Below, piece after piece: positions 1 to 17,680 of a DNA stretch of 20,000 bases; position 1 is the first letter of the stretch, and every line of letters begins with the position of its first letter. This stretch comes from an uncultured virus (IMG/VR IMGVR_UViG_3300020123_000428) (Duplodnaviria; Heunggongvirae; Uroviricota; Caudoviricetes): the IMG/VR virus record IMGVR_UViG_3300020123_000428; one strand, 5' to 3'. The notes under the pieces were generated by a model. It ran no database searches. It was not told the DNA's origin and saw only the letters and a list, made by a program, of their open reading frames with translations. The position numbers and the translations under genes are program-made.

Positions 1-435
1 CTCCATCAGGTCCCGCGCGTCCTCGGGGAGTTCGCTCATGCCGCCGACGCGCTCGGCCGAGTCTCGCCACAGCAGGTACACGCGCCGGTTGTCGTGAAAC
101 TCGCCAGTGTCCTTGACCACGTGGTAGTGGACGCAGATCGGCGCCACGAGCTGGTTGGCCAGAGTGGCCGCGAACTCGGCCTCGGTGTGGTCGGTGGTGA
201 TCTTCAGGACCACCGCCGGATCCAGCGTGGGGATCACGCAGCCGTACGCGCCGCAGCCGTACTCCTTGACCGCGGCGACCACGCGACTCCCGCGGGCGAC
301 CGGGCGGACGTCCATGAGCCGCGGCAGCCATCGCGACGGCATCGAGTCCTCGAGATCCTCGTAGACCCGGCCGATGATCTCCGCCACCCAGGGCGGGTTC
401 TGGACGAAGGCGTCGGGTGACGGGCGCGCGCGCAT
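1..435 (-). CDS. Protein kinase-like protein, N-terminal part (3' end runs off the window)
   Basis: Manual translation from ATG at 435 is open to position 1 (145 codons): MRARPSPDAF...KEYGCGAYGCVIPTLDPAVVLKITTDHTEAEF...RRVYLLWRDS. It shows a GxGxxGxV Gly-rich loop, the VxxK lysine and a helix-C-like Glu. Catalytic loop/DFG not visible in the window. Confidence 0.75.
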   Translation of the reverse strand, partial: MRARPSPDAFVQNPPWVAEIIGRVYEDLEDSMPSRWLPRLMDVRPVARGSRVVAAVKEYGCGAYGCVIPTLDPAVVLKITTDHTEAEFAATLANQLVAPICVHYHVVKDTGEFHDNRRVYLLWRDSAERVGGMSELPEDARDLME

Positions 436-457
436 GGTGGTATCTTACGAGGGATTC
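436..457. promoter_or_regulatory. Putative bidirectional promoter with overlapping -10 elements
   Basis: Plus strand TG-G-TATCTT (-10 at 441-446) and minus strand TAAGAT (447-442); predicted starts ~453 and 435, the latter being the A of the kinase ATG (leaderless). Confidence 0.5.
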
Positions 458-1321
458 ATGGAGATCTCCGAGAAGAACCTGTCGGGGTTCCGCGACTGGC
501 TCCGGGGGCGCGGGCGGACCGAGGGGACGGCCGAGACCTACTGCATGAACCTCCGCACCTGTGGCGCCGACCCCAAGGGGCTGACCCACCGCCTGATCGC
601 CGGCGACCTCGCCCCGACCACGCTGCGCTGTAACCTCGCGTCCCTCCGAGCCTGGGCGCTGTACGCCAAGGACGGCACCCTGTCCCAGACCCTGGCCGAC
701 CTGCGCCTCCCGCCGCCGCGCCGCATGAAGTCCCGTGATCCGCTGGATCGCGAGGACTGGAAGCGGATAGTGCGCCACCTCCAGACCTGCGACATGACCA
801 ACGAGGCCATGCGTCAGATCCTGCTCATCATGGCGCTCCGGGGCCTCAGGTCCGGCGACGTTCTGCGGCTCCGCCGCGCCGAGGTCGTCCGCGCCGTTGC
901 CAGCGGCAAGCTCTCCTACGAGGGCAAAGGCAGGAAGCGCATCGAGCTCTCGGCGGCGCCGATCCGGGGGCCGCTCGAGGCGCTCGCGCAGATGCGCGGC
1001 TGGGACCGCGTGCGTGACCTCCTCGGAACCGCTCGCTCCGGCGAGACGCTTGCATCGTCGGCGCTGCGCAAGAAGGTGTGGCGTGCCGCGATCCGCACCG
1101 GCGCCGCGGCCGGCATCGACGAGATGAACCCGCACCGCTACCGGCACACGTTCGCGACGCAGTACCTGGCCCAGCTCGCTGGCGACCCCAATAGCATCGT
1201 GAAGCTGCAGCGGTACATGCACTGGGAGTCGATGGGGACCGCGGCGCGGTACGTCGACCACGTGTCCCGCGAGCAACTCGATAAGGTGGGCGACGACATG
1301 GTGTCCGACCTCCTGACCTGA
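458..1321 (+). CDS. Tyrosine recombinase (XerC/Cre-like, ~287 aa)
   Basis: Catalytic motifs GLRSGD (R), GKGRKR (K), PHRYRH (HxxR), YMHWESMGTAARY (W/Y). ATG 458 is preferred because upstream starts would overlap the divergent kinase gene. Confidence 0.93.
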   Translation: MEISEKNLSGFRDWLRGRGRTEGTAETYCMNLRTCGADPKGLTHRLIAGDLAPTTLRCNLASLRAWALYAKDGTLSQTLADLRLPPPRRMKSRDPLDREDWKRIVRHLQTCDMTNEAMRQILLIMALRGLRSGDVLRLRRAEVVRAVASGKLSYEGKGRKRIELSAAPIRGPLEALAQMRGWDRVRDLLGTARSGETLASSALRKKVWRAAIRTGAAAGIDEMNPHRYRHTFATQYLAQLAGDPNSIVKLQRYMHWESMGTAARYVDHVSREQLDKVGDDMVSDLLT

Positions 1322-1383: not shown

Positions 1384-3147
1384 ATGCCAGACAAACTCTA
1401 CGCCATCCTCGAGTTCACCGGAATTCCCGTCGATGGCACGCAGACGCTGCCCCACGGCCTGACGATCAACGGCCAAGTGCTGGTGCCGGACTTTGTGTCC
1501 CCGCAGTACCCGGGGACGTTCGAGGTGACCAGCACGACGACCTCGGGCATCACGCTCCACAACGTCTCGAGCGCCAGTGGCAACTGCTTGGTCTGGTGCT
1601 ACGCGATCCACCCGGTGGCCCGATCGTTCGGGGCACCGCCCGACGATGGGAACATCCACCAGCATCTGACGCCCCAGCCGTTCGTGCTGGGGTCGCCGAA
1701 TGTCCCGGCGGGATCCTTTGATCAGTTCAACGTGAAGAACTTCGGCGCCATCGGCGACGGGGTGCACGACGACACCGGAGCCATCAACCGCGCGATGGCG
1801 GCGGCGGCGCTCGTCCAGCTCAGCGGGGCGTTCGGGGCCATGGTGTTCTTCCCGAAGGGGGTCTACAGCGTGAGCGCGCCGGTGCAGGTACCAGACGGCG
1901 TGGGGTTACAGGGCGTGGGGACGCCGGGCTCGGTCATCCGCGCGTCGGCGACGTTCAATGGGACGGCGCTGGTCCAGAACCTCCATCAGGACGGCACGCA
2001 GGAGTTCATGTTCGTCGAGGGGCTCACGCTCGACGGCAACCATGCGGCGGGGGCGGTGTGCAGCACCGCGGTGCTGGACATCGTGTCGATCTTCGTGAAC
2101 TCGTTCGTCCGCGACGTCGAGATCCTGAACGGCAGCAGCGTCGGCTTGCACGTGGGCGCTCTCCGCGCGATGGGGCCGATCCTGTTCGACAACATCTGGG
2201 TGGCGAACAACCTGGGCGACGGCATCTGGTGCCAGGAGATGCCCGGGAACGTCGGCGCCTGCGACGGGCTGCTGTTTCTCCACACCGCGAGCGAGCACCA
2301 GGGGTCCAACCACGTGGCGCTGCGTCTCACGGGGCTGGGGAGCGCATCGGGCTGGTCCTTCATCAACCTCCACATCGAGCAGGGCCAGATCGGGGCCACG
2401 TCGCAGACGTGCATCGTGCTGGATGGTGTGCCGGACGTGTTCTTCGACAACGTGCAGCTGCTGACCGGCAACGCGCCGCAGACGACGGGAATCGTGATCA
2501 CGAACGCGGTCCAGAACGTCCGGTACCAGTTCCGTGGGATCGAGAATGCGAACCTCATCAACCCGGTGATCAGCGATCTGAAGAACAGCGTCACGTGGGG
2601 CGCGATCGGCGCGATTCCGTGGTACGTGGCCCCGGACGTGGTCATGCGCGGTGGCCTACGGTTTCTGCCGGCCGCCACATCTGGATCCAAGAGTGTCGCG
2701 TTTCAGAATGCCGGAGGGACCGACGCCGCGTGGTTCGATGATCAGGGCATGCTGATCGGCAACAGCCTCGATGGGGCGCTGGATGTCGCGGCGAACAGTG
2801 CCGACGGGGCGACGGGTCGGGTGATGACGTGGTTTAACCATGCGCAGAACCGCGGGTTTGGTTTTTACTTTCCCGACGGGAACTTCTTCACATTCAGGTA
2901 TGTCACCGGCGGAACCGATGTCTTCGACATCGACAACAGCGGGTTCATGCGTGTGTTGACGCTGCTGACGATCGTCGGGGCGCTGAAGGGGACCGCGACC
3001 CACACGGCGCCGCCCAGCACCGGTGCGCACGGGGTGGGCGAGATCGTCTTCAACGCCGATCCGATCGCGGGCGGTTTCATCGGATGGGTCTGCGTCACGG
3101 CAGGAACGCCAGGAACCTGGAAAACCTGGGGCGTCATCAGTCCGTAG
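1384..3147 (+). CDS. Spike / receptor-binding protein with pectate-lyase-like right-handed beta-helix (putative depolymerase)
   Basis: FNVKNFGAIGDGVHDDTGAINRA...VFFPKGVY beta-helix cap motif, Asn/Gly-rich beta repeats, and C-terminal GEIVFNADP..GWVCVTAGTPGTWKTWG typical of phage spikes. Confidence 0.85.
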   Translation: MPDKLYAILEFTGIPVDGTQTLPHGLTINGQVLVPDFVSPQYPGTFEVTSTTTSGITLHNVSSASGNCLVWCYAIHPVARSFGAPPDDGNIHQHLTPQPFVLGSPNVPAGSFDQFNVKNFGAIGDGVHDDTGAINRAMAAAALVQLSGAFGAMVFFPKGVYSVSAPVQVPDGVGLQGVGTPGSVIRASATFNGTALVQNLHQDGTQEFMFVEGLTLDGNHAAGAVCSTAVLDIVSIFVNSFVRDVEILNGSSVGLHVGALRAMGPILFDNIWVANNLGDGIWCQEMPGNVGACDGLLFLHTASEHQGSNHVALRLTGLGSASGWSFINLHIEQGQIGATSQTCIVLDGVPDVFFDNVQLLTGNAPQTTGIVITNAVQNVRYQFRGIENANLINPVISDLKNSVTWGAIGAIPWYVAPDVVMRGGLRFLPAATSGSKSVAFQNAGGTDAAWFDDQGMLIGNSLDGALDVAANSADGATGRVMTWFNHAQNRGFGFYFPDGNFFTFRYVTGGTDVFDIDNSGFMRVLTLLTIVGALKGTATHTAPPSTGAHGVGEIVFNADPIAGGFIGWVCVTAGTPGTWKTWGVISP

Positions 3148-3365: not shown

Positions 3366-3695
3366 ATGAACGACGATGCGCCGCCGGCGATGGCGCCGGG
3401 CTCCCAGGCGGGGTACGTGGACATCGACCGGCTGGCGAACTCGGACCGCATCGTGGCGGTGTTCAGCCAGCGGCGGTGGGACGGAGAGATCACCTTCGCG
3501 ATCTTCCGCGAGTTCGACAAGTTCGAGCGCGGACAGGTCGTGGTGAGCCGTACGGGGTTCATCCCGGCGTCGCTGTCCGAGTCGTACCAGTCCCATGTGC
3601 AGCTCGCGATCGCTCACATCGGGACGCTGGCGCAACGTCGGCGCGAGCGGAAACTGCCCTTCCCCGAGGGCGGTGAGCAGCGAGGGCGGCGGTGA
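3366..3695 (+). CDS. Hypothetical protein (~109 aa; beta-sheet plus C-terminal helix)
   Basis: 3' part of ORF 3084..3695, protein-like composition, stop overlaps the endolysin start (GTGA). Start could be 3342 or 3366. Confidence 0.65.
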   Translation: MNDDAPPAMAPGSQAGYVDIDRLANSDRIVAVFSQRRWDGEITFAIFREFDKFERGQVVVSRTGFIPASLSESYQSHVQLAIAHIGTLAQRRRERKLPFPEGGEQRGRR

Positions 3696-4564
3696 TCGTC
3701 GGGGTGGACTACGCGTCGGTCGATGGCAACGCGCCGCCGGACTGGGACGTGTTCCAGGCGGCGTGCTCGAGCAGCGGATCGTCGGCCGGCATCGCGATCT
3801 TCCGCGGCGCATACGGCGCGAGCCCGGACGCTACGGTGCTCCGTGACTGGAGGCGCGCGCAGGCGGCGGGCCTCGTCACCGGCGCCTACCTGTTCCTGCG
3901 CAGTTCGCAGCCGGTGGTCGATCAGGTGCACGCGTTCGCCGACAACGTCGGCGTGCTGACCGCCCGGGATCTGGTGCCCATCCTGGATGTCGAGGACCAG
4001 TGGCCCGGTGGCCCCGAGGCCGAGCTCGAGGCAGTGCACGAGGCGTGGACGGCCATGAAGGGCATCTACGGCGCGCCGCCGATGATCTACGACTCCGGCC
4101 GGGTCTGGCTCGAGGATCTCCACAGCCTCCCCGCCGGCGAGATGCTGGACTCGGCGCAATGGGTCGCCAAGCCGTGGCCGTGGGCGGTCCACAAGCCCGC
4201 GATGCTGTCGCCGGGGCCGTTCCAGGGGACGACCTATGATCCGGTCGTGCCGGCGCCGTGGGGGCCCGGCAACTGGTGGCTGCACCAGTACCAGGGCGAC
4301 GCGCACCCGGTGCCAGGGTTCACCAACACGGTGGACCTGTCGCGGTTCCACCTGATGCAGTACGGCGAGACCGGCGCGCGCGTGCGGTGGGTGCAGACCC
4401 GCCTGGGCATGCCGGTCACCGGCATCTTCGACAGCGCGATGGGGACCCGCGTACGCGCGTTCCAGACCGCGCACGGCCTGGTCGCGGACGCCGTAATCGG
4501 CCCCCGGACGTTCGTGCTGATCGCGTGGGCCACGCCCATCACGAGCTCGCCCCGCGCGGCATGA
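3692..4564 (+). CDS. Endolysin: GH25 muramidase plus C-terminal peptidoglycan-binding domain
   Basis: GVDYAS N-terminal Asp, GAYLF, ILDVE (DxE), WLHQY, VDLS; PG-binding pattern G..VRWVQTRLG..TGIFD....VRAFQTAHGLVADAVIGPRT. Confidence 0.9.
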   Translation: MIVGVDYASVDGNAPPDWDVFQAACSSSGSSAGIAIFRGAYGASPDATVLRDWRRAQAAGLVTGAYLFLRSSQPVVDQVHAFADNVGVLTARDLVPILDVEDQWPGGPEAELEAVHEAWTAMKGIYGAPPMIYDSGRVWLEDLHSLPAGEMLDSAQWVAKPWPWAVHKPAMLSPGPFQGTTYDPVVPAPWGPGNWWLHQYQGDAHPVPGFTNTVDLSRFHLMQYGETGARVRWVQTRLGMPVTGIFDSAMGTRVRAFQTAHGLVADAVIGPRTFVLIAWATPITSSPRAA

Positions 4565-5163
4565 CCTGCATCGCCCCGCGGGCACCCGGCGATCGCGCGC
4601 GCTGCGGTCAGCCCCGTGAGCCCGGGAGCCTGTTCTGCCGCGGCCACGAGCGGGCGCCGGCCGCGCAGCGGGGCGGCTGGTTGTCCGCCGAGCGGCGCCG
4701 GCGCAAGATAGCCTCGGAGCAACCCATGGACGCCTCGAACGTGGCCACACGGCTCTGGATCGGCGCCCGCCCGCCGGCCGACGTCGATCTACCCGATATC
4801 GACGTGCTGGTCTTGTGCGCGGAGGAGATCCAGCCCGAGCGCATGGCGTTCCACGGGCGGATCATCCGCTGCCCGCTGCCGGACGCCGCCCTGAACACGC
4901 CGCAGGCCGCGCGCGCGGTCCTGGCCGGTCAGGCGGTCGCCGAGGCACTGGCGACCGGCCAGCGCGTGCTGGTGACCTGCGCGATGGGGATCAACCGATC
5001 CTCGCTGGTCGCTGGCCTGGCGCTGGCGCGCGTCACCCGGATGGGCTGGTCGGAGATCGTCTCCCTGATCCGCGCCCACCGCCACCCGCTGGCGCTGAGC
5101 AACCCGCACTTCCTGCACCTCTTGCGGCAGGTCGCGCGGGACGGTCGCGCGCCGATCCGCTGA
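4561..5163 (+). CDS. Dual-specificity / tyrosine protein phosphatase with N-terminal CCCH finger
   Basis: VLVTCAMGINRS (CX5R P-loop), LWIG, PLPD acid loop, SNPHF; ATG 4561 overlaps the endolysin stop (ATGA). Confidence 0.88.
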   Translation: MTCIAPRAPGDRARCGQPREPGSLFCRGHERAPAAQRGGWLSAERRRRKIASEQPMDASNVATRLWIGARPPADVDLPDIDVLVLCAEEIQPERMAFHGRIIRCPLPDAALNTPQAARAVLAGQAVAEALATGQRVLVTCAMGINRSSLVAGLALARVTRMGWSEIVSLIRAHRHPLALSNPHFLHLLRQVARDGRAPIR

Positions 5164-5426: not shown

Positions 5427-5780
5427 TCAGAAGCCGATGATGGTGTTGTAGCTCGCCAGGAGCGTCAGCGCCTGGGTGTTCGAGATGGCGCCGGTGCCCT
5501 GGAGAAAACTCGCCATCCAGCACAGCCGGTACACCGCCTCCGCGGCGTCCGTGAGCTGGGTGATCGGTGGCACCCCGGTGGGCATCACCTGACCCAGCGC
5601 CGCGATGATCACCAGCCAGTTGCTCACCGGGTGGCTCGCCTGGATCTGCTGCGGGAACAGATCCAGGTTGGCGGACCAGAAGTTGATGAGGGTGTTCTTG
5701 AGCTGGCTCGACAGCCAGCGGACCTGCAGGTTGTCGAACGCCTGGCCGGCGGCTTGCGCCAGTGATGTCGCGGTCGCCAT
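5427..5780 (-). CDS. Hypothetical protein (117 aa), putative virion/membrane-associated
   Basis: Clean ORF at the end of the minus-strand operon, hydrophobic helical stretches. Confidence 0.75.
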   Translation of the reverse strand: MATATSLAQAAGQAFDNLQVRWLSSQLKNTLINFWSANLDLFPQQIQASHPVSNWLVIIAALGQVMPTGVPPITQLTDAAEAVYRLCWMASFLQGTGAISNTQALTLLASYNTIIGF

Positions 5781-5784
5781 CGGT

Positions 5785-6567
5785 TCACCCCTGATCCTGA
5801 TCGGACATCACGATCCGGAGCGGCGCCGGACCGGCGTTGGTCACGCTGAAGATCAGCGCGTCGAACGTGCCCTGGTTCTTTGCCGTGATGATCTGCGTGA
5901 CCGAGTTCCCCGAGGTCACCGTGGCCGCCGCGTGGATCACCGTCTCCTGGTGGTACGGGTTCGGGGAGCCATCCTGGGTGATGGCGTAGTTGACCGCCGA
6001 GATCCCGTAGGTGGTCGGGTCGGTCGCGTTGCGGTTGGTGAACTGGGTGAAGCAATACTTCCGGCCGTAGTACGGCACGACGATGTACAGCGTCCCGGTG
6101 ATCACCGAGTAGTCCTGGAACACGAACGACTTGTCCTGGCGCGCCGGGCCCAGCGACGGCGGCGAGATGAAATACTCGAGCACGTCCAGGCGCGGCGCCA
6201 CGAACTCGATCTTGTCGCCGCTCACGAACGCGCGCGGGCGGAAGTTCGGGTCGTAGATGTCGTCCGACCAGAACAGGATCTTGCCGGGCCGACCGGCGGG
6301 CGCGTAGCTCGCCTCGTTGCGCGCGTCCAGGCGCCCGACCAGCGCGCGGTTCGGCGAGATCACCGCGAACTGCATGAACGTGTCCACCTGGTCATCGAAG
6401 TAGGCGACGTTGACGTTGGCGATGTCGGAGTCCGGGCCGACCGCGAACCCCAGGCCCGACTGCGACGACTCGTAGATGTCGCCGGGCGAGGACAGGAGCG
6501 TGTTCAGCCGGAAGAACTGGTATCCGCCGGTCGCGTACTTGTCGGCATCGGGCTGTGGGTACGACAT
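5785..6567 (-). CDS. Putative virion structural protein (260 aa, beta-rich)
   Basis: Strong GC3 bias, alternating hydrophobic beta-strand patterns, purine-rich RBS (AAAGAGG). Confidence 0.75.
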   Translation of the reverse strand: MSYPQPDADKYATGGYQFFRLNTLLSSPGDIYESSQSGLGFAVGPDSDIANVNVAYFDDQVDTFMQFAVISPNRALVGRLDARNEASYAPAGRPGKILFWSDDIYDPNFRPRAFVSGDKIEFVAPRLDVLEYFISPPSLGPARQDKSFVFQDYSVITGTLYIVVPYYGRKYCFTQFTNRNATDPTTYGISAVNYAITQDGSPNPYHQETVIHAAATVTSGNSVTQIITAKNQGTFDALIFSVTNAGPAPLRIVMSDQDQG

Positions 6568-6600
6568 GTGCCTCTTTCGTCGCGTCTTGCGGGTGGCAAG

Positions 6601-7083
6601 CTACCGCTTGGTGAGCGCCGACACCACGGCCGGCGCGCCGCGCACGGCGGCCATGAACGAGGTGAACAGGCCCGTGATGGTCTCGAGCCACGGGTAGGGC
6701 TCGACCACGACGCTGATCCGGTTTGCGCCGGTCGCGGCGACGTAGAGCTTGTTGCCCTTGGCGATGTTGAACACGGTGGGCACGCCGGTCTGGAGAAGTT
6801 GGCCCTTGCCCGAGAGCACCGGAGTGAGCTGGCTCGACTCGCCGACCGCCACAGGTCCGGCGGTCTCGAGCGTGAGCGTGACCTTCGCCCACTGGCGATC
6901 GCCGTTGTAGATGATCGGCGTCTCCGCGCCGACCACGGGAACATTGGTGAAGTAGGTCCGGACGTTGACCTTGATCTCCGCGTTGCCGGTCGTGTCGGCG
7001 GGGACCGGCGACTGGGCGACGTTGCGATTAAGCGAGACCGCATGGATCTTGCTGATCTTCCGGGGTGGCACGGGTGGGGTCAT
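6601..7083 (-). CDS. Putative virion protein (160 aa, small beta-sandwich plus amphipathic C-terminal helix)
   Basis: 3' part of ORF 6601..7749 starting MTPPVPP at ATG 7083, which overlaps the upstream stop (ATGA); beta-rich core. Confidence 0.75.
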   Translation of the reverse strand: MTPPVPPRKISKIHAVSLNRNVAQSPVPADTTGNAEIKVNVRTYFTNVPVVGAETPIIYNGDRQWAKVTLTLETAGPVAVGESSQLTPVLSGKGQLLQTGVPTVFNIAKGNKLYVAATGANRISVVVEPYPWLETITGLFTSFMAAVRGAPAVVSALTKR

Positions 7084-7871
7084 GGGCGTCTCGTGTAGAG
7101 GAGGTAGCCCAGAGCGAGACCACCCAGTACGAGCAGCATGGTACCCGAGATCGGCTCCACGAAGAAAGGAGCAACATCGGCCGGCAGGGTGTAGGGGCCG
7201 GCGGGGGGATCCGGGATGATCATGGGCGGTCCCGAGAGCCCGGCGGCGACGGCCTGGCCGATGGCCCACTGCCGATCGATATCGATCACGCGCTTGGCCA
7301 CGGTCGCCGCGCTCTGCGTGCCCAGCGGCGCGCCGCCGGTCTGGCTCACGTAGCGCACGATGTCGTGGTAGACGTCGCCGGTCGTGAGGCCGCCCAGCGC
7401 GGCGCGCGCGTTGGTGGCGAGCTGGTGAGAGCCGGCGCGGCCGACCGCGAACGCGAGGCGCGCGAGCTTCCACGAATCGGCGGTGCCCAGTTTGACCTCG
7501 GGGAAGGCCAGCGACCAGTACACCGCCTCCATCGCGTACTCCAGCGAGCCGATCGCGATGTTCGACTCCGGATCGGTGCGGGCGTCGGCGTCGTAGCCGA
7601 AGAGGGGTGGCACGTACGCGGCAATCTGGAGGTAGCCGACCTCGCCCAGCGATGGGTCCCCGGGCGCGTTGAAGTTGCCGCCGCTCTCGTGGGCGATCGC
7701 GGCCGCGAGGAAGCCGGCCGGCATGCCGCCGTGGTACATGTCGATCCACGGGCCGAGTTGGTCGTAGACGGCCTGAGCGACCGCGACATCGGCGTCGAAG
7801 GTTGGGTCAGTCGCCACCCGGTGTAGTGTATCACCGCCGCCCGCGATAGGCGGCGCCTCGTCTAGGCCCAT
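7080..7871 (-). CDS. Lytic transglycosylase (SLT-like) with C-terminal transmembrane anchor
   Basis: AIAHESGGN (catalytic ES), GYLQI, DPESNIAIG..Y, LAFAVG in place of AYNAG; C-terminal MLLVLGGLALGYLLYTRRP. Confidence 0.8.
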   Translation of the reverse strand: MGLDEAPPIAGGGDTLHRVATDPTFDADVAVAQAVYDQLGPWIDMYHGGMPAGFLAAAIAHESGGNFNAPGDPSLGEVGYLQIAAYVPPLFGYDADARTDPESNIAIGSLEYAMEAVYWSLAFPEVKLGTADSWKLARLAFAVGRAGSHQLATNARAALGGLTTGDVYHDIVRYVSQTGGAPLGTQSAATVAKRVIDIDRQWAIGQAVAAGLSGPPMIIPDPPAGPYTLPADVAPFFVEPISGTMLLVLGGLALGYLLYTRRP

Positions 7872-7897
7872 CGCCTAGCTGCTCTCGGCCCGGCGGG

Positions 7898-8593
7898 TCA
7901 GTACACCATGCGACTCAGGAGGCCGGAGAGGTGGATCCACACCGCCGGCTCGTGAATGTGCGACAGCGACAGCATCATCTCGAGGAGGCGGGCGGTCGTT
8001 CGGGATTCCGGGACGACCTCGACGTAGAACATCTGACGGACACTGATTGGGACGGGGCGCGGCTGGGCGGCGACGAACTCCGCGACCGCGCACCAAGCCG
8101 ACACCTCATCGTGGCCAAGTTCGGCGAAGTCGCGCCGGCCATGCCGGCTGCTGGACATGTAGATCAAGTAGAGGCGCTGGGCGAGCGCGTGGGTCTCCGG
8201 GGAGACGTACGCCTCGTACCGCAGTCGCTTGGCGTCGTCGTCTTCTTCGACCGCGCCGCCGAACCCGCTCTCTCGCCTCGGCTGGACCAACTCCGCCAGC
8301 GGTCGCTCGCTCATGACCTTGAGGCCGACGACCAACCGGACGGTGACCGCGTTGGCCCACTCGGCGTAGGCTGGCAAGTCCTCCGGGAGGTTCGTGCGGG
8401 CATACCAGTTCGTGACGAGCGCGCTGGAATCGGAGGGAAGCACCCCTCCCGTCATCATGTTCGTCATGCGACCCACGCCGATGTTGCGGTTGCCGAACAA
8501 CCGGACGGGTCGTCCATCCAAGCAATCTCGTGGCGAGAACGCATCGTAGACGTTGAGGTTGACGCGATCGAGGTCGGAGTGAGGGAGGATCAT
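7898..8593 (-). CDS. Hypothetical protein (231 aa), possibly single jelly-roll capsid-like
   Basis: Clean ORF; N- and C-terminal beta-strand segments (VYD..RLFG..TNMMTGGVLP; PISVRQMFYVEV..VWIHLSG) flanking a helical insert. The fold call is inference. Confidence 0.6.
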   Translation of the reverse strand: MILPHSDLDRVNLNVYDAFSPRDCLDGRPVRLFGNRNIGVGRMTNMMTGGVLPSDSSALVTNWYARTNLPEDLPAYAEWANAVTVRLVVGLKVMSERPLAELVQPRRESGFGGAVEEDDDAKRLRYEAYVSPETHALAQRLYLIYMSSSRHGRRDFAELGHDEVSAWCAVAEFVAAQPRPVPISVRQMFYVEVVPESRTTARLLEMMLSLSHIHEPAVWIHLSGLLSRMVY

Positions 8594-8606: not shown

Positions 8607-9188
8607 TTACAACGCCGCCAGCAACACGTCGGCGGCGTCGTTGATGATCGCCACCCGCTCGGGCGATCCCCCCGTCCGGTCCGGGTGGTGCTTCTTGTTC
8701 AGCGCCCGCCGGCGGTCCTTGATCATCGCCTCGGTGAGCGGCTCGCTCTGGGCGAACCCCAGCACCTGGCGCGCGATCCGACGCTTCTCGATCTCCGGAT
8801 CGATCGGCGGCGGGGCCGGTGGGCGCTGTCCGCCCGCAGCTGCAGCGCCAGCGCCGGGCCACCACCGGGGGGTGCCGCTCTGCGCCCGCCGGTGGGCGCT
8901 CGCCTCCGACTCCCCGTCGAACACCTCGGGGCGGTACCCGCCGGCCATGCCGGTCCACTGCTCGGCCAAGTCCTGCACCGCGCCGATGGTCGCCTCGCGG
9001 TTGATGGCCTTGCCCTGGAGCAGATCGACCAGCGTGCTCGCCAGCACCTCGGAGGGTGGCCGGGGCCGCGCTGCGGTGGCGAGGGCGATGCGATGCGGTG
9101 AGCACAGCGCCGGCGACCCCTCGCCCGGGTATGGGCAGCGGCGTCCGCCCTCGGTGTAGGTGCAGCGCGGGTGCTTGATCTTGGGCAT
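8607..9188 (-). CDS. J-domain (DnaJ-type) protein with N-terminal CCCH finger
   Basis: C-terminal ARQVLG...IKDRRRALNKKHHPDRTGGS...INDAADVL with HPD. ATG 9188 is preceded by AGAAGG; the longer start runs through hairpin cluster C. Confidence 0.85.
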   Translation of the reverse strand: MPKIKHPRCTYTEGGRRCPYPGEGSPALCSPHRIALATAARPRPPSEVLASTLVDLLQGKAINREATIGAVQDLAEQWTGMAGGYRPEVFDGESEASAHRRAQSGTPRWWPGAGAAAAGGQRPPAPPPIDPEIEKRRIARQVLGFAQSEPLTEAMIKDRRRALNKKHHPDRTGGSPERVAIINDAADVLLAAL

Positions 9189-9196
9189 CCTTCTGC

Positions 9197-9434
9197 GTCT
9201 CAGCGTACCCTGAGCCGAACCGGAAGTCGCACGTCTCGGCGATTCGTCACGCACAGCAGTCTCGGGCTGTCTCGGATGCCGAGCCATTCCTAGCGGAGGC
9301 GATCCGATGGTCTCCCAGGGTACGGGGGAGCCGGTTCTAGCACGCGGACGTCTCGGAGCCGTTCAGGGTCTGGTCTCGGGCTTCCCCGAGCCGAGCCGTT
9401 CGACGCCGAGCACTGCGTCTCGGGAGTTCCGAGC
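9197..9434 (+). repeat. Hairpin cluster C
   Basis: GTCTCAG-CGTACC-CTGAGC (9197-9215), GTCTCGG-ATG-CCGAGC (9269-9284), GTCTCCC-N9-GGGAGC (9310-9331), GTCTCGGG-CTTC-CCCGAGC (9373-9391), GTCTCGG-GAGTT-CCGAGC (9417-9434); half-sites at 9233, 9259, 9350. Confidence 0.85.
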
Positions 9435-9754: not shown

Positions 9755-10159
9755 TCACTTGCTCCCGATCATCTGCTTGATGGTGGCGATCAGATCCTGG
9801 GACGCCGCGATCGCGGCGGTGAGGCTCGGATCGTCGGTCTGGGTGGCGGCGATCGCCAGGGTCTTGTAGGCCAGCGTGATGCCGGTGGCAATCTCCGCTT
9901 GCCTCGCGCGGTAGGCGGCGATGGCCTTGTCGTACTCCTCGCGCGTCGGGGCCGCATCGAGGATGGCCTGCTGGTGCTGCTTGTCCCACGGCAGGAATCC
10001 CTTCTCGGCGGCCTGCACCGCGAGCACGCTGGCATGGAGCGTGTCCTGCCGCTGGCTCTGGTTGCACGCCGACATGGTCGACGTGGTGAACAGCAGCATG
10101 CAGACGGTCGCGATGAAGTAGAGCGAGACGGCGGACGGGCGAACGCGGAGGATGGGCAC
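9755..10159 (-). CDS. Putative lipoprotein (134 aa, helical)
   Basis: GTG start with AAGGAG RBS; basic N-terminus, hydrophobic stretch, then MSA-C lipobox-like site. Confidence 0.7.
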   Translation of the reverse strand: MPILRVRPSAVSLYFIATVCMLLFTTSTMSACNQSQRQDTLHASVLAVQAAEKGFLPWDKQHQQAILDAAPTREEYDKAIAAYRARQAEIATGITLAYKTLAIAATQTDDPSLTAAIAASQDLIATIKQMIGSK

Positions 10160-10161
10160 GA

Positions 10162-10545
10162 TCAGGACTCCTTGACGGGGGTGGGCGGAGCGGAAGCGGT
10201 TGGGATGGGCGGCGGAGGCGGGGGCGCCTTGAAGACGGTGTGGTCCAGCGATGCGGCACCGCCGGTGGATACCGGGATCTGGACGATGTGAGGCGTGGCC
10301 GGCGGCGCCGGGGCCGGCAGCGTGACCGGCGCGGGCGTCGAGCTGGGGTCGCTGCTCTTGGACATGGTCTCCACCGAGCTCGTGACGGTCTTGGCCGCCG
10401 CGTAGGTGATGAAGATCCACTTCGTGTAGTCGAGCCACTGCGTTGGGGTGATGAACCCCATGCCGGTGAGCACGGTGACAGCGGCGATCAGCGCGATGGC
10501 AACGAGCCCGCGCTCGCTCTGCCAGAGATCCTTGAGTGCACCCAT
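10162..10545 (-). CDS. Holin-like membrane protein with Pro-rich tail (127 aa)
   Basis: MGALKDLWQSERGLVAIALIAAVTVLTGMGFITPTQWLDYTKWIFITYAAAKT: two short hydrophobic helices as in small phage holins. Confidence 0.6.
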   Translation of the reverse strand: MGALKDLWQSERGLVAIALIAAVTVLTGMGFITPTQWLDYTKWIFITYAAAKTVTSSVETMSKSSDPSSTPAPVTLPAPAPPATPHIVQIPVSTGGAASLDHTVFKAPPPPPPIPTASAPPTPVKES

Positions 10546-10609
10546 ATGGTGGAAGGCTTTCACGGGTGGCGTGGAGATGTCCAGCGCTAGTTGCGAGCGG
10601 CGGTCAGCG

Positions 10610-12239: not shown

Positions 12240-13340
12240 TCACTCGCCTCGGGCCAGGAGGTGGGCGATGGCGTCCAGCGACGCCCGGATGAACTCAGCG
12301 GCTACTTGCGGGACGAGCGAGTTCCCGTAGCCCCGCAGAAGTCCCACGCGATCGGGTAGCCCTGTAACCAGCGGCTCAAGCCCGGGTTCAATTGGCCGGG
12401 CGACGGGCGGACCGCCGCTGGGGTCTCGGCAGAGGATCCAGTCGGCGGGGTGCCAGAATCCGGCGGTGGATCCTGGAGGGACATCGCCGCTGCGGCATGC
12501 AAGGTAAGCTGGGCCCGGGTCGGACTTCCTCCGCCGTTGGCGTCCCCGGACACTGGCGTCGCCCAGTGGCTGGCTCTCGCCTGTCCCAGGAGCGTCAGGT
12601 TGCCGCGCTTGAACTTCCCTCCGGCCTTTTCGTCCGTTGCGAGCGGCGTGTTCCACGCGGTCAGCCGTGCTACCTCGTTCAGGGGTCGGGCGTTGTCCCC
12701 GTGCTTGTTGCTGGCTGACGACTTCCAGTCCCTCGCGGTCGCGGTCGGCCAGGAGGCCAGTTTCGCGGCGCCGGCCAGCTTGAGGGTCGGGGACTCGTGG
12801 TCCCCGCGCGCGTACGAGTAGTCCCCTCTCGAGACCGTCGGCGTAGGCCACGAAGAACAGGCGCTGTCGGATGTGCGGGGCGCCGACGCTCGCAGCGCAC
12901 AGATCCGCCGCCCCGACGGTGTAACCGCATCGTTCCAGGTCAGAGAAAACAAGGTCGAGCCACTCGAGGCCAAGTTGACTCGCAACCTGCTCTCCAAAGA
13001 TGATTGGAGGGCGGCACTCCTCGATGAGTGGGAGCCATGCTGGCCAAAGATGTCTAGGGTCGAGAAACCCGCGCCTCTGGCCCGCGTCCGAGAGTCCCTG
13101 GCAGGGGCACGAGCCGGTCCAGATGGGGGCGTCATCGGGGACCCCGGCGAGCCGGAGGGCGAGGGACCACCCGGCGATCCCGGCGAAGAAGTGCCGCTGT
13201 CCAGGCCCGGCAACGTCGGCTGCGGTGAGGTCGGCGATGGAGCGTCGGTCGACCCGTCCGGGCGCGATCTGCTCATGGGTGATGAGCCTCTCCAGCCAGT
13301 CGGCTGCGAACGGGTCGATCTCGTTGTAGAGAGCGGGCAC
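12240..13340 (-). CDS. DNA (cytosine-5) methyltransferase, main chain
   Basis: Motif I FFAGIAG, IV GSCPCQGLS, VI EQV, VIII PHIRQRLFFVA, X GYGNSLVPQVAAEFI. Confidence 0.9.
   Translation of the reverse strand: MPALYNEIDPFAADWLERLITHEQIAPGRVDRRSIADLTAADVAGPGQRHFFAGIAGWSLALRLAGVPDDAPIWTGSCPCQGLSDAGQRRGFLDPRHLWPAWLPLIEECRPPIIFGEQVASQLGLEWLDLVFSDLERCGYTVGAADLCAASVGAPHIRQRLFFVAYADGLERGLLVRARGPRVPDPQAGRRRETGLLADRDREGLEVVSQQQARGQRPTPERGSTADRVEHAARNGRKGRREVQARQPDAPGTGESQPLGDASVRGRQRRRKSDPGPAYLACRSGDVPPGSTAGFWHPADWILCRDPSGGPPVARPIEPGLEPLVTGLPDRVGLLRGYGNSLVPQVAAEFIRASLDAIAHLLARGE
12302..13135 (-). CDS. Nested alternative-frame ORF: putative second MTase chain (W-x-T repeats plus motif IX)
   Basis: Same strand, different frame; WPTP/WPTA/WNTP/WATP repeats and LNPGLSRWLQGYPIAW. 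Start uncertain (frame open to 13507). Confidence 0.65.
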   Translation of the reverse strand: MTPPSGPARAPARDSRTRARGAGFSTLDIFGQHGSHSSRSAALQSSLESRLRVNLASSGSTLFSLTWNDAVTPSGRRICALRASAPRTSDSACSSWPTPTVSRGDYSYARGDHESPTLKLAGAAKLASWPTATARDWKSSASNKHGDNARPLNEVARLTAWNTPLATDEKAGGKFKRGNLTLLGQARASHWATPVSGDANGGGSPTRAQLTLHAAAAMSLQDPPPDSGTPPTGSSAETPAAVRPSPGQLNPGLSRWLQGYPIAWDFCGATGTRSSRK

Positions 13341-13346
13341 GCCGGA

Positions 13347-13550
13347 TCATGCGCTGTTGCGGGCGAGCCTGGAATCGACGGTGCAGACCATGCCGCCGTT
13401 GAACCAGACCCAATTTGCGCGCTTGTCGACATACTGCTCGGCGTGTCGTCGTTGGTTGAAGCGCATCGCCTCGCCAATAGTCCCTCCGCGAGGAGACTTG
13501 GGGCCACGGAAGAACGACCCGTTGCGGAACTCGATCACGTAGCGATTCAC
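13347..13550 (-). CDS. Hypothetical protein (67 aa)
   Basis: GTG start with GGAGG RBS; VNRYVIEFRNGSFF... Confidence 0.65.
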   Translation of the reverse strand: MNRYVIEFRNGSFFRGPKSPRGGTIGEAMRFNQRRHAEQYVDKRANWVWFNGGMVCTVDSRLARNSA

Positions 13551-16780: not shown

Positions 16781-17680
16781 CTACTCGACATCGTCGCCGA
16801 GCACGTACTCACCAGCGGCCAGGCCGTTCAGTTGCTTCACCAGGTCCAGCCGCTTGAACTCCAGGTGAAGATTGCGATTCTTGAAGCACTTGTAGCGGAA
16901 ATAGACGGTCTCGCCGCGCCCCGACTTGTCGCCATCGTTGATGGCCTTCACCAGCGGGCCCTTGTTCTCGCGCATGATCCCCTTGCCGTCCAGCAGGTGG
17001 AAGATCCCATCGATCGCCGTGAGCGTCTGCTCGCTACCGTAATGGACGCGGAACCCGCCGCTGTAGCCCTGCTCCACCTTCCAGGGCAGGATCACCCGAC
17101 GTCCGACACGGAACGCGTTGTTGGTCGCGTACTGGCCGCCCCAGTGACCTTGCGGTCGGAGCATGTCGAACACCTCGCGCGCGGCCTCCTTGGCGAAGTC
17201 CTGGGCCTGATCGGTCAGGCCGACCAGCGTCGCGATGATCGTCTGCTCGCTCACCGAAGGGAGTTCGCCGGACTTCAGTTGCTCGTCGAACACCTTGCGC
17301 TTGGCGACGGACATCACGTTCTTGATCCCGAGGGTGTCCACGAGGACATCCCACGCTCGGCGCTCCATCGCCTTGAACATGTCGTCCATGTCGATGTTGC
17401 GATGGCCGTCGTAGCTCAGGCCGATCCCAAAGCGGCTGTAGTGATAGTCACCGTCCTCCGGCGTGCGAAACGCGGCATCCATCCGCTCGGTCTGGATCTG
17501 GAGTGCGCTCACGAGCCGAGCGATCTCGGCGGTCGCCTCGCTGAACTCGCGGGCCATGTGGCATGCGGTCCGCTCGAACTCTGGGGATCCGGGATCCGGC
17601 AGTGCTGCGGTGGTGGTCGTGCTGTCGGTCGGTCGCACGATCAGTGCGGTCTCGGTGGTCTCGCGGTCGGTTCCGTCCAT
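16781..17680 (-). CDS. DUF4942-like protein (299 aa)
   Basis: FDMLRP...YATNNAFRVGRRVIL...IDGIFHLLDGKG...ETVYFRYKCFKNRNLHLEFKRLDLVKQLN pattern; ATG 17680 has an AAGGAG RBS. Confidence 0.8.
   Translation of the reverse strand: MDGTDRETTETALIVRPTDSTTTTAALPDPGSPEFERTACHMAREFSEATAEIARLVSALQIQTERMDAAFRTPEDGDYHYSRFGIGLSYDGHRNIDMDDMFKAMERRAWDVLVDTLGIKNVMSVAKRKVFDEQLKSGELPSVSEQTIIATLVGLTDQAQDFAKEAAREVFDMLRPQGHWGGQYATNNAFRVGRRVILPWKVEQGYSGGFRVHYGSEQTLTAIDGIFHLLDGKGIMRENKGPLVKAINDGDKSGRGETVYFRYKCFKNRNLHLEFKRLDLVKQLNGLAAGEYVLGDDVE

Follow-up and report, generated by a model that had tools for sequence, protein, structure and literature searches.

The window, a 20-kb stretch of an 81.6-kb viral contig, contains a run of five genes, E-D-C-B-A, read from position 8593 to position 5427 (Table 1). 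GC3 frame analysis indicated that the five genes are co-directional on the minus strand, in agreement with the operon proposed in the first-pass annotation, and that they converge with plus-strand genes ending at position 5163. The description of this operon as encoding small beta-rich and hydrophobic proteins was accurate in part: protein B was predicted to be all-beta, but a hydropathy scan identified D as the only carrier of a transmembrane (TM)-like segment in the module, with the small TM proteins lying upstream of the operon, at 9755-10563. A tRNA scan of the window and of a related genome (G001) found none.

Table 1. Features of the E-D-C-B-A module and of its surroundings in the window
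Feature	Position	Strand	Length	Description
E	7898..8593	-	231 aa	Paralogue of a conserved 191-aa protein, by profile comparison
D	7080..7871	-	263 aa (245 aa from alternative start 7817)	Putative SLT-like protein with C-terminal anchor
C	6601..7071/7083	-	About 156 aa	Conserved protein
B	5785..6567	-	260 aa	Two predicted tandem jelly-roll-like beta-sandwich domains
A	5427..5780	-	117 aa	Last gene of the operon
F	8607..9287	-	Up to 226 aa	Upstream conserved gene; weak J-domain-like C-terminus
Receptor-binding/depolymerase-like protein	1384..3147	+	587 aa	Pfam and PHROG matches
Endolysin	3692..4564	+		GH25 and PG_binding_1; convergent with the operon

To place these genes in context, we compared 12 related loci. 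Gene A followed B in all 12, the order C-B-A was kept in ten, and D lay upstream in nine of those ten. F preceded D (or E) in 10 of the 12 loci; it matched phrog_9210 (E 1.7e-8) and Pfam DnaJ at an E value of 0.0054, which is under the curated cut-off. No family was found for A in Pfam, PHROGs or NCBIfam. The endolysin (Glyco_hydro_25, E 8.6e-10; PG_binding_1, E 6.7e-8) was present at the same place in 4 out of 12 loci (L005, L006, L007 and L009). In G001, the module is about 8 kb from a block of genes conserved among the related genomes, surrounded by integrase, phosphatase, ParB and endolysin genes.

Scanning of 30 window open reading frames (ORFs) against Pfam and PHROGs detected no terminase, portal or tape measure gene, as had been noted before. 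The accompanying statement that the window has no tail genes did not hold, however. The receptor-binding/depolymerase-like protein matched Pfam Pect-lyase_RHGA_epim (E 3.8e-17) and 19 PHROG families, of which 16 are classed as tail or connector (tail fibre, tail spike, tail protein, EPS depolymerase and pre-neck appendage). Its N-terminal adaptor of about 105 aa was 33-61% identical to the corresponding part of seven proteins of 193-1124 aa, encoded by G001 (three), G002, G003 and G004 (two).

The first-pass annotation had compared D with PRD1 P7, a lytic transglycosylase of the virion membrane encoded by gene VII of that member of the Tectiviridae, and the comparison of domain order held for both layout and motifs. 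The two proteins are of similar length (263 aa for D and 265 aa for P7), and each combines an N-terminal SLT block (E-S, G-L/Y-M/L-Q, D-P-x-x-N-I) with a single C-terminal hydrophobic helix, at residues 236-254 of the 263-aa form of D (Kyte-Doolittle 1.76) and at residues 221-239 of P7. The HESGGN, GYLQ and DPESNI motifs of D were invariant in all five family members and aligned with TESSGN, GLMQ and DPTQNI of P7 (hhalign E 0.011, probability 3.8). The anchor and the SLT-like motifs were thus as claimed, but profile scores were weak: Pfam SLT (PF01464) gave an E value of 0.1 for D of the window (12.6 bits against a cut-off of 21.3) and matched two of the five family members at E values of up to 10, with a best value of 0.015. 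One PHROG transglycosylase family matched (phrog_12507, E 1.1e-3), and a profile search against PDB sequences gave no match. D may be a lytic transglycosylase of SLT-like type that is anchored in a membrane at its C-terminus, an assignment that is statistically weak. Unlike D, which is known here from its gene, P7 is encoded in a 15-kb genome together with a double jelly-roll (DJR) capsid protein and the P9 ATPase. A second wall hydrolase (M23) in G001 was also tail-anchored.

Structure prediction for B yielded a confident all-beta model (AF2 pLDDT 95, pTM 0.90) with two domains, at about residues 15-110 and 115-258, both predicted to be jelly-roll-like beta-sandwiches. The best Foldseek matches were to STIV A223, a turret or penton base protein (6bo3_A, E 4.2e-5; 3j31_Q, E 8.1e-5). 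A223 shares with B two consecutive jelly-roll-like domains in a chain of about 220-260 aa and was the only match spanning both domains among the best 50 VIA-align rows; its score against 3j31_Q (Z 7.9, rmsd 5.2, 178 residues) is at or below the level typical of this tool for models without a clear match. In contrast to these likenesses, identity between B and A223 was only 8%, and the host of STIV is archaeal. A DJR capsid protein and a packaging ATPase, both of which STIV possesses, were not found here. The jelly-roll folds sought by structure prediction were thus predicted in B, as two tandem jelly-roll-like domains, but none of the three fold searches listed a DJR capsid protein among its top 50 matches. 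The strongest single-domain matches were to GOLD domains (Z 10.4 for the C-terminal domain) and to XepA and YomS rather than to capsid proteins, and every fold match of B, like every one of the 191-aa protein described below, involves a very common beta-sandwich. Matches of B in BFVD were mostly uncharacterised tailed-phage proteins. For B, the ESM Atlas offered a poor model (pLDDT 0.44) and uninformative neighbours, labelled Uroviricota. Searching PDB sequences with B at the sequence or profile level gave no match. With 197 homologues, 307 clusters at 50% identity and a fixed length, B is highly conserved for a protein that is not an enzyme.

The likeness of B to XepA and YomS, of the Bacillus prophages PBSX and SPbeta, underlies the main rival to a role of the module in the virion. 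The module could instead be a lysis cassette, in which B, and perhaps C, would act as oligomeric beta-sandwich proteins on the cytoplasmic membrane in the manner of XepA and YomS, D would be a tethered muralytic enzyme, and both would help the GH25 endolysin and the small TM proteins to release progeny. We consider this unlikely. In its favour, the C-terminal sandwich of B superposed on XepA (Z 9.1-9.2, rmsd 2.4, 94 residues) and YomS (Z 9.0), Foldseek placed XepA over both B domains (E 1.6e-4), and XepA, too, has two beta domains. According to PMC6834076, XepA and YomS are encoded in the lytic cassettes of Bacillus prophages, with XepA adjoining lysis genes, and XepA is cytotoxic. The endolysin adjoins the module here, and the small TM proteins lie upstream. 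However, a Pfam scan that included the XepA model (PF27453) matched neither B nor C at E <= 0.01, so that B is without a sequence-family match, the superposition is confined to one domain, and the source of XepA is a tailed (defective) phage. The endolysin was also missing from its place in 8 out of 12 loci, whereas B and A were always present, and in our judgement the conservation and fixed length of B over 307 clusters would be unusual for a lysis accessory. Moreover, PMC8812541 likens XepA itself to penton capsomers and single jelly-roll capsid proteins; because of this resemblance, the fold of B cannot separate a vertex role from a lysis role.

Protein C had 309 homologues, none with a Pfam domain, and its core of about 100 aa is probably beta-rich. 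In an Atlas feature search, which we treat only as a lead, 32% of the members of the nearest named cluster carried PRD1_P5_spike_N (score 0.90, 159 shared features). In hhalign comparisons, C could not be linked to the PRD1 proteins P31 and P5, to B, or to the conserved 191-aa and 210-aa families; nor could B be linked to either of these two families, or the two families to each other. C had no match among PDB sequences.

Protein E, for which no family was found in Pfam, PHROG or NCBIfam, provided the connection to the conserved block. Its family aligned end to end with that of the 191-aa protein (hhalign probability 99.4, E 1.4e-21, 183 columns), which makes E, as judged from sequence, a clear paralogue. 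The 191-aa protein is the most conserved gene product of the five related genomes (76-86% identical), with 667 homologues of nearly fixed length; that a paralogue of this protein is encoded in the same operon as B and D counts against a lysis cassette. In G001, the E homologue (66576-67331) lies just downstream of the last gene of the conserved block. The 191-aa protein was modelled, with moderate confidence (pLDDT 66), as an eight-stranded sandwich. Its top fold rows were viral single jelly-roll capsid proteins, namely SPV1 (Z 6.7) and P23-77 VP17 (Z 5.2); VP16 gave Z 4.8. All these values are under the noise level of the tool, and Foldseek returned no match at E <= 1e-3. By this model, and for E through paralogy, the proteins may resemble those of SPV1 (Portogloboviridae) and of P23-77 and SH1 (Helvetiavirae). 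In the related genomes, the 191-aa gene adjoins a conserved 210-aa gene, whose product is predicted to be beta-rich, an arrangement that recalls the paired capsid genes of helvetiaviruses. We propose that E is a minor capsid or vertex (penton-like) protein. Unlike SPV1, P23-77 and SH1, the viruses considered here have genomes 3-5 times larger and peptidoglycan-bearing hosts.

We searched for hallmark genes in five related IMG/VR records of 75.6-86.3 kb, estimated by CheckV to be 94-100% complete. In six-frame searches in which positive controls were found, none of the five genomes contained Terminase_6N or TerL_ATPase (PF03237, PF03354), Phage_capsid (PF05065) or Phage_portal (PF04860). Terminase, capsid and portal were also absent among 100 ORFs of G001 (Pfam and PHROGs) and 86 ORFs of G004 (Pfam). 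The HK97 capsid, terminase and portal genes that would be expected of a tailed phage were thus not found in relatives of this element; fold predictions covered B and the 191-aa protein, and for the rest of the conserved block the negative result for HK97 is at the profile level. NCBIfam searches of 71 proteins gave only weak matches far under the curated cut-offs, none of them structural, and the conserved-block proteins of 191, 210, 530, 563 and 187 aa had no match among PDB sequences.

It is very unlikely, in our view, that these genomes belong to highly divergent tailed phages in which the module supplies tail-tip, baseplate or accessory proteins and the capsid, portal and terminase are beyond the reach of profiles. 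The tailspike-like pectate-lyase protein in PHROG tail families, the BFVD matches of B and the Uroviricota labels of the Atlas neighbours would suit such phages, as would the genome size and the accessory genes of the relatives (methylases, QueD, DUF5131 and GP88), which are typical of tailed phages. Against this, the four hallmark families were absent from all five genomes while controls were positive. Terminases are P-loop ATPases, and no orthologous P-loop (Walker A) motif common to the five genomes was detected in any frame; the sole AAA ATPase found by scanning was an accessory gene in G002, with the same Walker A motif in G003. Nor was there an ORF long enough for the tape measure of an 80-kb phage: the longest conserved-block proteins, of about 530-610 aa, were coiled-coil or had a C-terminal TM helix, and profile searches of the PDB gave no match for them. 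The conserved block was rich in tail-anchored membrane proteins, and TM-like segments were present in 23 of the 100 G001 ORFs. Because hallmark genes are absent from near-complete relatives and the block is rich in tail-anchored proteins, the tailless, membrane-containing virus first suggested for this locus is supported, also by the P7-like layout of D; the virus is known from its genes, and the membrane is deduced from the tail-anchored proteins.

The assignment to a Varidnaviria-type virus fared differently. An FtsK/HerA-type ATPase (PF01580) was found in none of the five genomes, in searches whose controls were positive in 12 of 14 cases. Membership of Varidnaviria is not supported, because neither this packaging ATPase nor a double jelly-roll capsid protein was found. 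To our knowledge, SPV1 has no packaging ATPase, and in this the relatives resemble it. By contrast, helvetiaviruses acquired a packaging ATPase according to PMC8812541, and no FtsK-like ATPase was found in the relatives of the window.

The missing ATPase would also suit a particle that lacks an icosahedral shell and is enveloped or pleomorphic and vesicle-like, or a vesicle-making plasmid, with B, C and E as membrane-associated spike or matrix proteins. Membrane proteins are numerous, a 272-aa protein whose arginine-rich N-terminus precedes hydrophobic stretches could condense DNA at a membrane, and the presence of a ParB-like gene and an integrase suggests maintenance in the manner of a plasmid. 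However, tblastn with B found no match among 72,556 plasmids (PLSDB), the endolysins and the depolymerase-like receptor-binding proteins indicate a lytic virus, and the 191-aa protein, being extremely conserved and fixed in length, better fits, in our judgement, a protein that forms a lattice. We regard such a particle as quite improbable. Three further candidates were rejected: a conjugative element, as neither its ATPase nor a relaxase was found in Pfam; a haloarchaeal virus, against which the peptidoglycan enzymes argue; and direct terminal repeats. The repeats in question were 90, 123, 127 and 123 bp long, and because the genome starts fall at different genes we take them to be overlaps left by the assembly of circular or permuted genomes.

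Taking these results together, we tentatively favour, at somewhat less than even chances, the interpretation that E-D-C-B-A encodes the vertex and entry apparatus of a circularly assembling dsDNA virus of ~80 kb. The virion would consist of proteins of jelly-roll type together with numerous small membrane-anchored proteins instead of the HK97, portal and terminase set. E would be a divergent duplicate of the 191-aa protein, the main component of the shell, and would occupy special (five-fold) positions; B, possibly with C, would form a turret or spike base at the vertex, in the way that A223 does in STIV. Variable receptor-binding proteins sharing one N-terminal adaptor would dock there, and D, with its C-terminal helix in the viral membrane, would cut peptidoglycan at genome delivery, as PRD1 P7 does. 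We favour this interpretation because the two-domain match of B is to A223, E is paralogous to the 191-aa protein, D has a P7-like layout, the tailed-phage hallmarks are absent and the block is rich in membrane proteins. The conserved C-B-A order, the location of the G001 E homologue beside the conserved block, the modular receptor-binding proteins and the conservation of B add to this. On the other side are the commonness of the beta-sandwich fold, Z values at or below noise level, the moderate quality of the 191-aa model and the neighbourhood of the module in G001, which fits an accessory or lysis role equally well. Since no packaging ATPase was found, a vertex apparatus also leaves the entry of 80 kb of DNA into the shell unexplained.

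As judged from its genes, the operon belongs to a widespread, undescribed group of virus genomes of roughly 80 kb. Searches with tblastn of B and the 191-aa protein against 50,697 GenBank phage records gave no match. An integrase and a ParB-like gene would allow for the temperate lifestyle proposed in the first-pass annotation, but among single genomes of 185,579 species only one relative was found, on an 88.7-kb contig in the size class of the free genomes. A limited literature search, which is not proof of novelty, found no description of such a lineage. Even the most cautious reading yields a well-modelled family with two jelly-rolls and a P7-like anchored transglycosylase. A bolder and rather doubtful possibility is that these bacterial dsDNA viruses form a new lineage of high rank, with circular genomes of about 75-89 kb, a single jelly-roll shell of the 191-aa protein and E, a membrane with a dozen tail-anchored proteins, turrets of B and ATPase-free condensation of DNA by a basic membrane-bound protein. 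The tailless phages with a membrane described so far have small genomes, of about 10-45 kb, and in all those known to us a capsid protein and a packaging ATPase can be recognised. If true, the lineage would correspond, in bacteria, to the archaeal portoglobovirus design, would exceed every known membrane-containing phage several-fold in size, and would fall within neither Duplodnaviria nor Varidnaviria as currently defined. The group is abundant (307 B clusters and 667 homologues of the 191-aa protein) and has none of the hallmark genes on which the assignment of viruses to realms is based. If its particles match its genes, the range of bacterial virion designs would be wider than recognised, marker-based surveys would be overlooking a whole group, and these viruses would offer a model in which to test ATPase-free genome packaging.

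We called genes in the window (67% G+C) and its relatives ourselves, placed the window genes by third-position G+C, and scanned the gene families of the window against Pfam and PHROGs. The plus-strand genes extend to 5163 and a long minus-strand run converges on them; the final five genes of this run form the module E-D-C-B-A. None of A, B, C and E matched a family in Pfam, PHROGs or NCBIfam. Upstream of the module lie three small ORFs, two of them with TM-like segments, and a gene whose product matches the J domain weakly; Pfam and PHROGs also identified there a ParB-like protein, a C5 DNA methylase and a DUF4942 protein. The last is weakly similar to a PHROG that carries a DNA methyltransferase annotation and was found in none of five related IMG/VR genomes (G001–G005). 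At 12240–13534 on the minus strand, two overlapping frames each match DNA methyltransferase PHROGs: 12240–13340 (phrog_363, E 4e-70, plus Pfam DNA_methylase), which is in frame and collinear with G003, and 12302–13507 (phrog_1008, E 4.7e-22, plus phrog_31772). Third-position G+C alternates between the two, and the region may represent either an intact gene overlapped by a look-alike frame or a gene that has been frameshifted.

Table. Genes located in the window
Feature	Position	Strand	Basis
Tyrosine integrase	374–1321	+	Pfam/PHROGs
587-aa protein, pectate-lyase-like domain	1384–3147	+	Pfam/PHROGs
Small conserved ORF	ends 3695	+	
GH25 + PG_binding_1 endolysin	3692–4564	+	Pfam/PHROGs
Dual-specificity phosphatase	ends 5163	+	Pfam/PHROGs
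A, 117 aa	5427–5780	-	third-position G+C
B, 260 aa	5785–6567	-	third-position G+C
C, about 156 aa	6601–7071	-	third-position G+C
D, 263 aa	7080–7871	-	third-position G+C
E, 231 aa	7898–8593	-	third-position G+C
DUF4942 protein	16781–17680	-	Pfam E 1.2e-36

Of 12 related loci compared, five of which lie in G001–G005, 10 retained the order C-B-A and 10 the flanking phosphatase, and D was retained in nine; in the two most distant loci, B-A alone could be recognised. E proved homologous end to end with a 191-aa protein (hhalign probability 99.4, E 1.4e-21), and its homologue in G001 lies directly downstream of the conserved block that encodes that protein. D scores under the Pfam SLT cut-off; its motifs HESGGN, GYLQ and DPESNI are kept in all five members and align with the counterpart motifs of PRD1 P7, at a weak score (E 0.011). 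D (263 aa) and P7 (265 aa) have one C-terminal hydrophobic helix each, and the P7 analogy drawn in the first-pass annotation was borne out in layout. C, with 309 homologues, showed no relation to any family compared, its sole lead being a feature-space neighbour cluster with PRD1_P5_spike_N in 32% of members.

AF2 models were made for two proteins, B and the 191-aa protein. The B model, built from a 141-sequence alignment (pLDDT 95, pTM 0.90), has about 20 strands in two sandwiches. Its best PDB matches by Foldseek were to the STIV turret protein A223 (E 4.2e-5 and 8.1e-5), at low TM-scores of 0.20–0.34. In a second VIA-align search, A223 (3j31_Q; Z 7.9, rmsd 5.2, 178 residues, model 13–255) was the sole row among the best 50 to span both domains. 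Strong VIA-align matches were confined to the C-terminal domain: GOLD domains (Z 10.4), XepA (9.1), YomS (9.0), and the nanovirus (8.6) and STNV (8.2) coat proteins. We tentatively read the module, at slightly under even confidence, as a vertex and entry set in which E would be a penton-like paralogue, B, possibly together with C, a turret-like part, and D an anchored transglycosylase. The chief rival, which we consider unlikely, is a XepA-like lysis cassette adjoining the endolysin. The fold evidence does not separate the two, because XepA itself is described as resembling penton capsomers (PMC8812541, PMC6834076).

The syntenic block common to all five genomes (G001 47472–66553) has the 191-aa protein as its most conserved product (76–86% identity; its 667 homologues hardly vary in length, and one of them is on a contig of 81,604 bp, as long as that of the window). 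Its model was moderate (pLDDT 66), with eight main strands. Foldseek returned no matches at E <= 1e-3, and the VIA-align scores for the top-ranked SPV1 (Z 6.7, rmsd 4.0, 126 residues), a phage cement protein (5.8), P23-77 VP17 (5.2) and PRD1 P5 (5.0) all fall under the noise bar of 7–8. A C-terminal hydrophobic helix occurs in block proteins of 563, 157, 222, 242, 151, 201, 114, 125 and 86 aa. A 272-aa block protein (G001 57934–58752; L015:17934–18752 in local positions; homologues 205 to 492 aa) has a mostly arginine start of about 65 residues followed by hydrophobic stretches and could be a membrane-bound DNA-condensing protein. These membrane proteins would also fit a pleomorphic, vesicle-type particle, which we regard as improbable. 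Downstream of the block, an M23 peptidase (G001 69205–69816; L016:9205–9816) has a C-terminal hydrophobic anchor, making it a second tail-anchored wall hydrolase alongside D. A 187-aa block protein (G001 50316–50879; L015:10316–10879), 75–79% identical between genomes, had no match in Pfam or PDB; C108, H146 and D163 are invariant in it, a set reminiscent of a transglutaminase-like cysteine protease.

B has 197 homologues (full-length members 255–274 aa), many on 75–89 kb contigs (the copy in the window belongs to a contig of 81,604 bp); an exhaustive profile search gave 307 clusters at 50% identity. Neither B nor the 191-aa protein matched any of 50,697 GenBank phage records, and B matched none of 72,556 plasmids. 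B is present on 11 IMG/VR contigs, five with CheckV completeness of 94–100%, four of these with terminal repeats. These five genomes (75.6–86.3 kb, 65–68% G+C) are read as circular or permuted, given terminal repeats of 90, 123, 127, 123 and 0 bp and differing start genes. A search of 185,579 species, each represented by one genome, yielded a single relative; it lies on an 88.7 kb contig from a metagenome-assembled genome, and the set thus shows no sign of common integration.

In G001, accessory functions are all that Pfam and PHROGs name (100 ORFs: integrase, phosphatase, ParB-like, methylases, PAPS reductase, QueD, DUF5131, GP88, DUF1643, M23 peptidase, ice-binding-like protein, glycosyltransferase and HTH regulators), and Pfam gave the same picture for G004 (86 ORFs). 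Genes of DNA-modification and counter-defence-like type cluster at L013:3183–12503 in G001 (DUF1643, PAPS reductase, DUF6283, C5 methylase, QueD-like PTPS), among them one for a 387-aa protein whose Acb2/Tad1 hairpin domain matches at E 2e-6. The ice-binding-like protein (L016:10119–11066; Pfam E 2.8e-48; NCBIfam E 6.8e-15, under cut-off) has homologues in the other related genomes that are partial. A 622-aa ORF in G004 (L029:13467–15335) with a Cas12f1-like TNB domain (E 3.9e-5, under cut-off) is possibly a TnpB-type transposon nuclease within a virus genome.

Six-frame searches, independent of our gene calls and positive in control genomes every time, found Terminase_6N, TerL_ATPase, Phage_capsid, Phage_portal and FtsK_SpoIIIE each in 0 out of 5 related genomes (94–100% complete). 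These negative searches thus apply to the relatives; of the window's own contig, the analysis covered the 20 kb of the window. No long ORF lay in the gaps between called genes in G001. These results speak against a very diverged tailed phage, a reading we hold to be very improbable; the 587-aa protein, for which 16 of 19 matched PHROG families are of tail or connector category, speaks for it. The first ~105 residues of this protein are common to seven proteins (193–1124 aa) in four genomes, an arrangement typical of interchangeable receptor-binding proteins built on a single adaptor.

The first-pass annotation had also proposed a Varidnaviria-type virus, and this part was not supported: no Walker A motif was common to orthologous proteins across the five genomes, the sole AAA ATPase being an accessory gene in G002 and G003, and no double jelly-roll capsid protein was among the fold matches listed for B. 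Because these two defining features, packaging ATPase and double jelly-roll capsid protein, were not found, the module is placed in no known family. The first-pass proposal of a tailless, internal-membrane virus was not refuted: profile searches for HK97 capsid, terminase and portal in the five relatives were negative, and these relatives look like viruses built of jelly-roll and membrane proteins.
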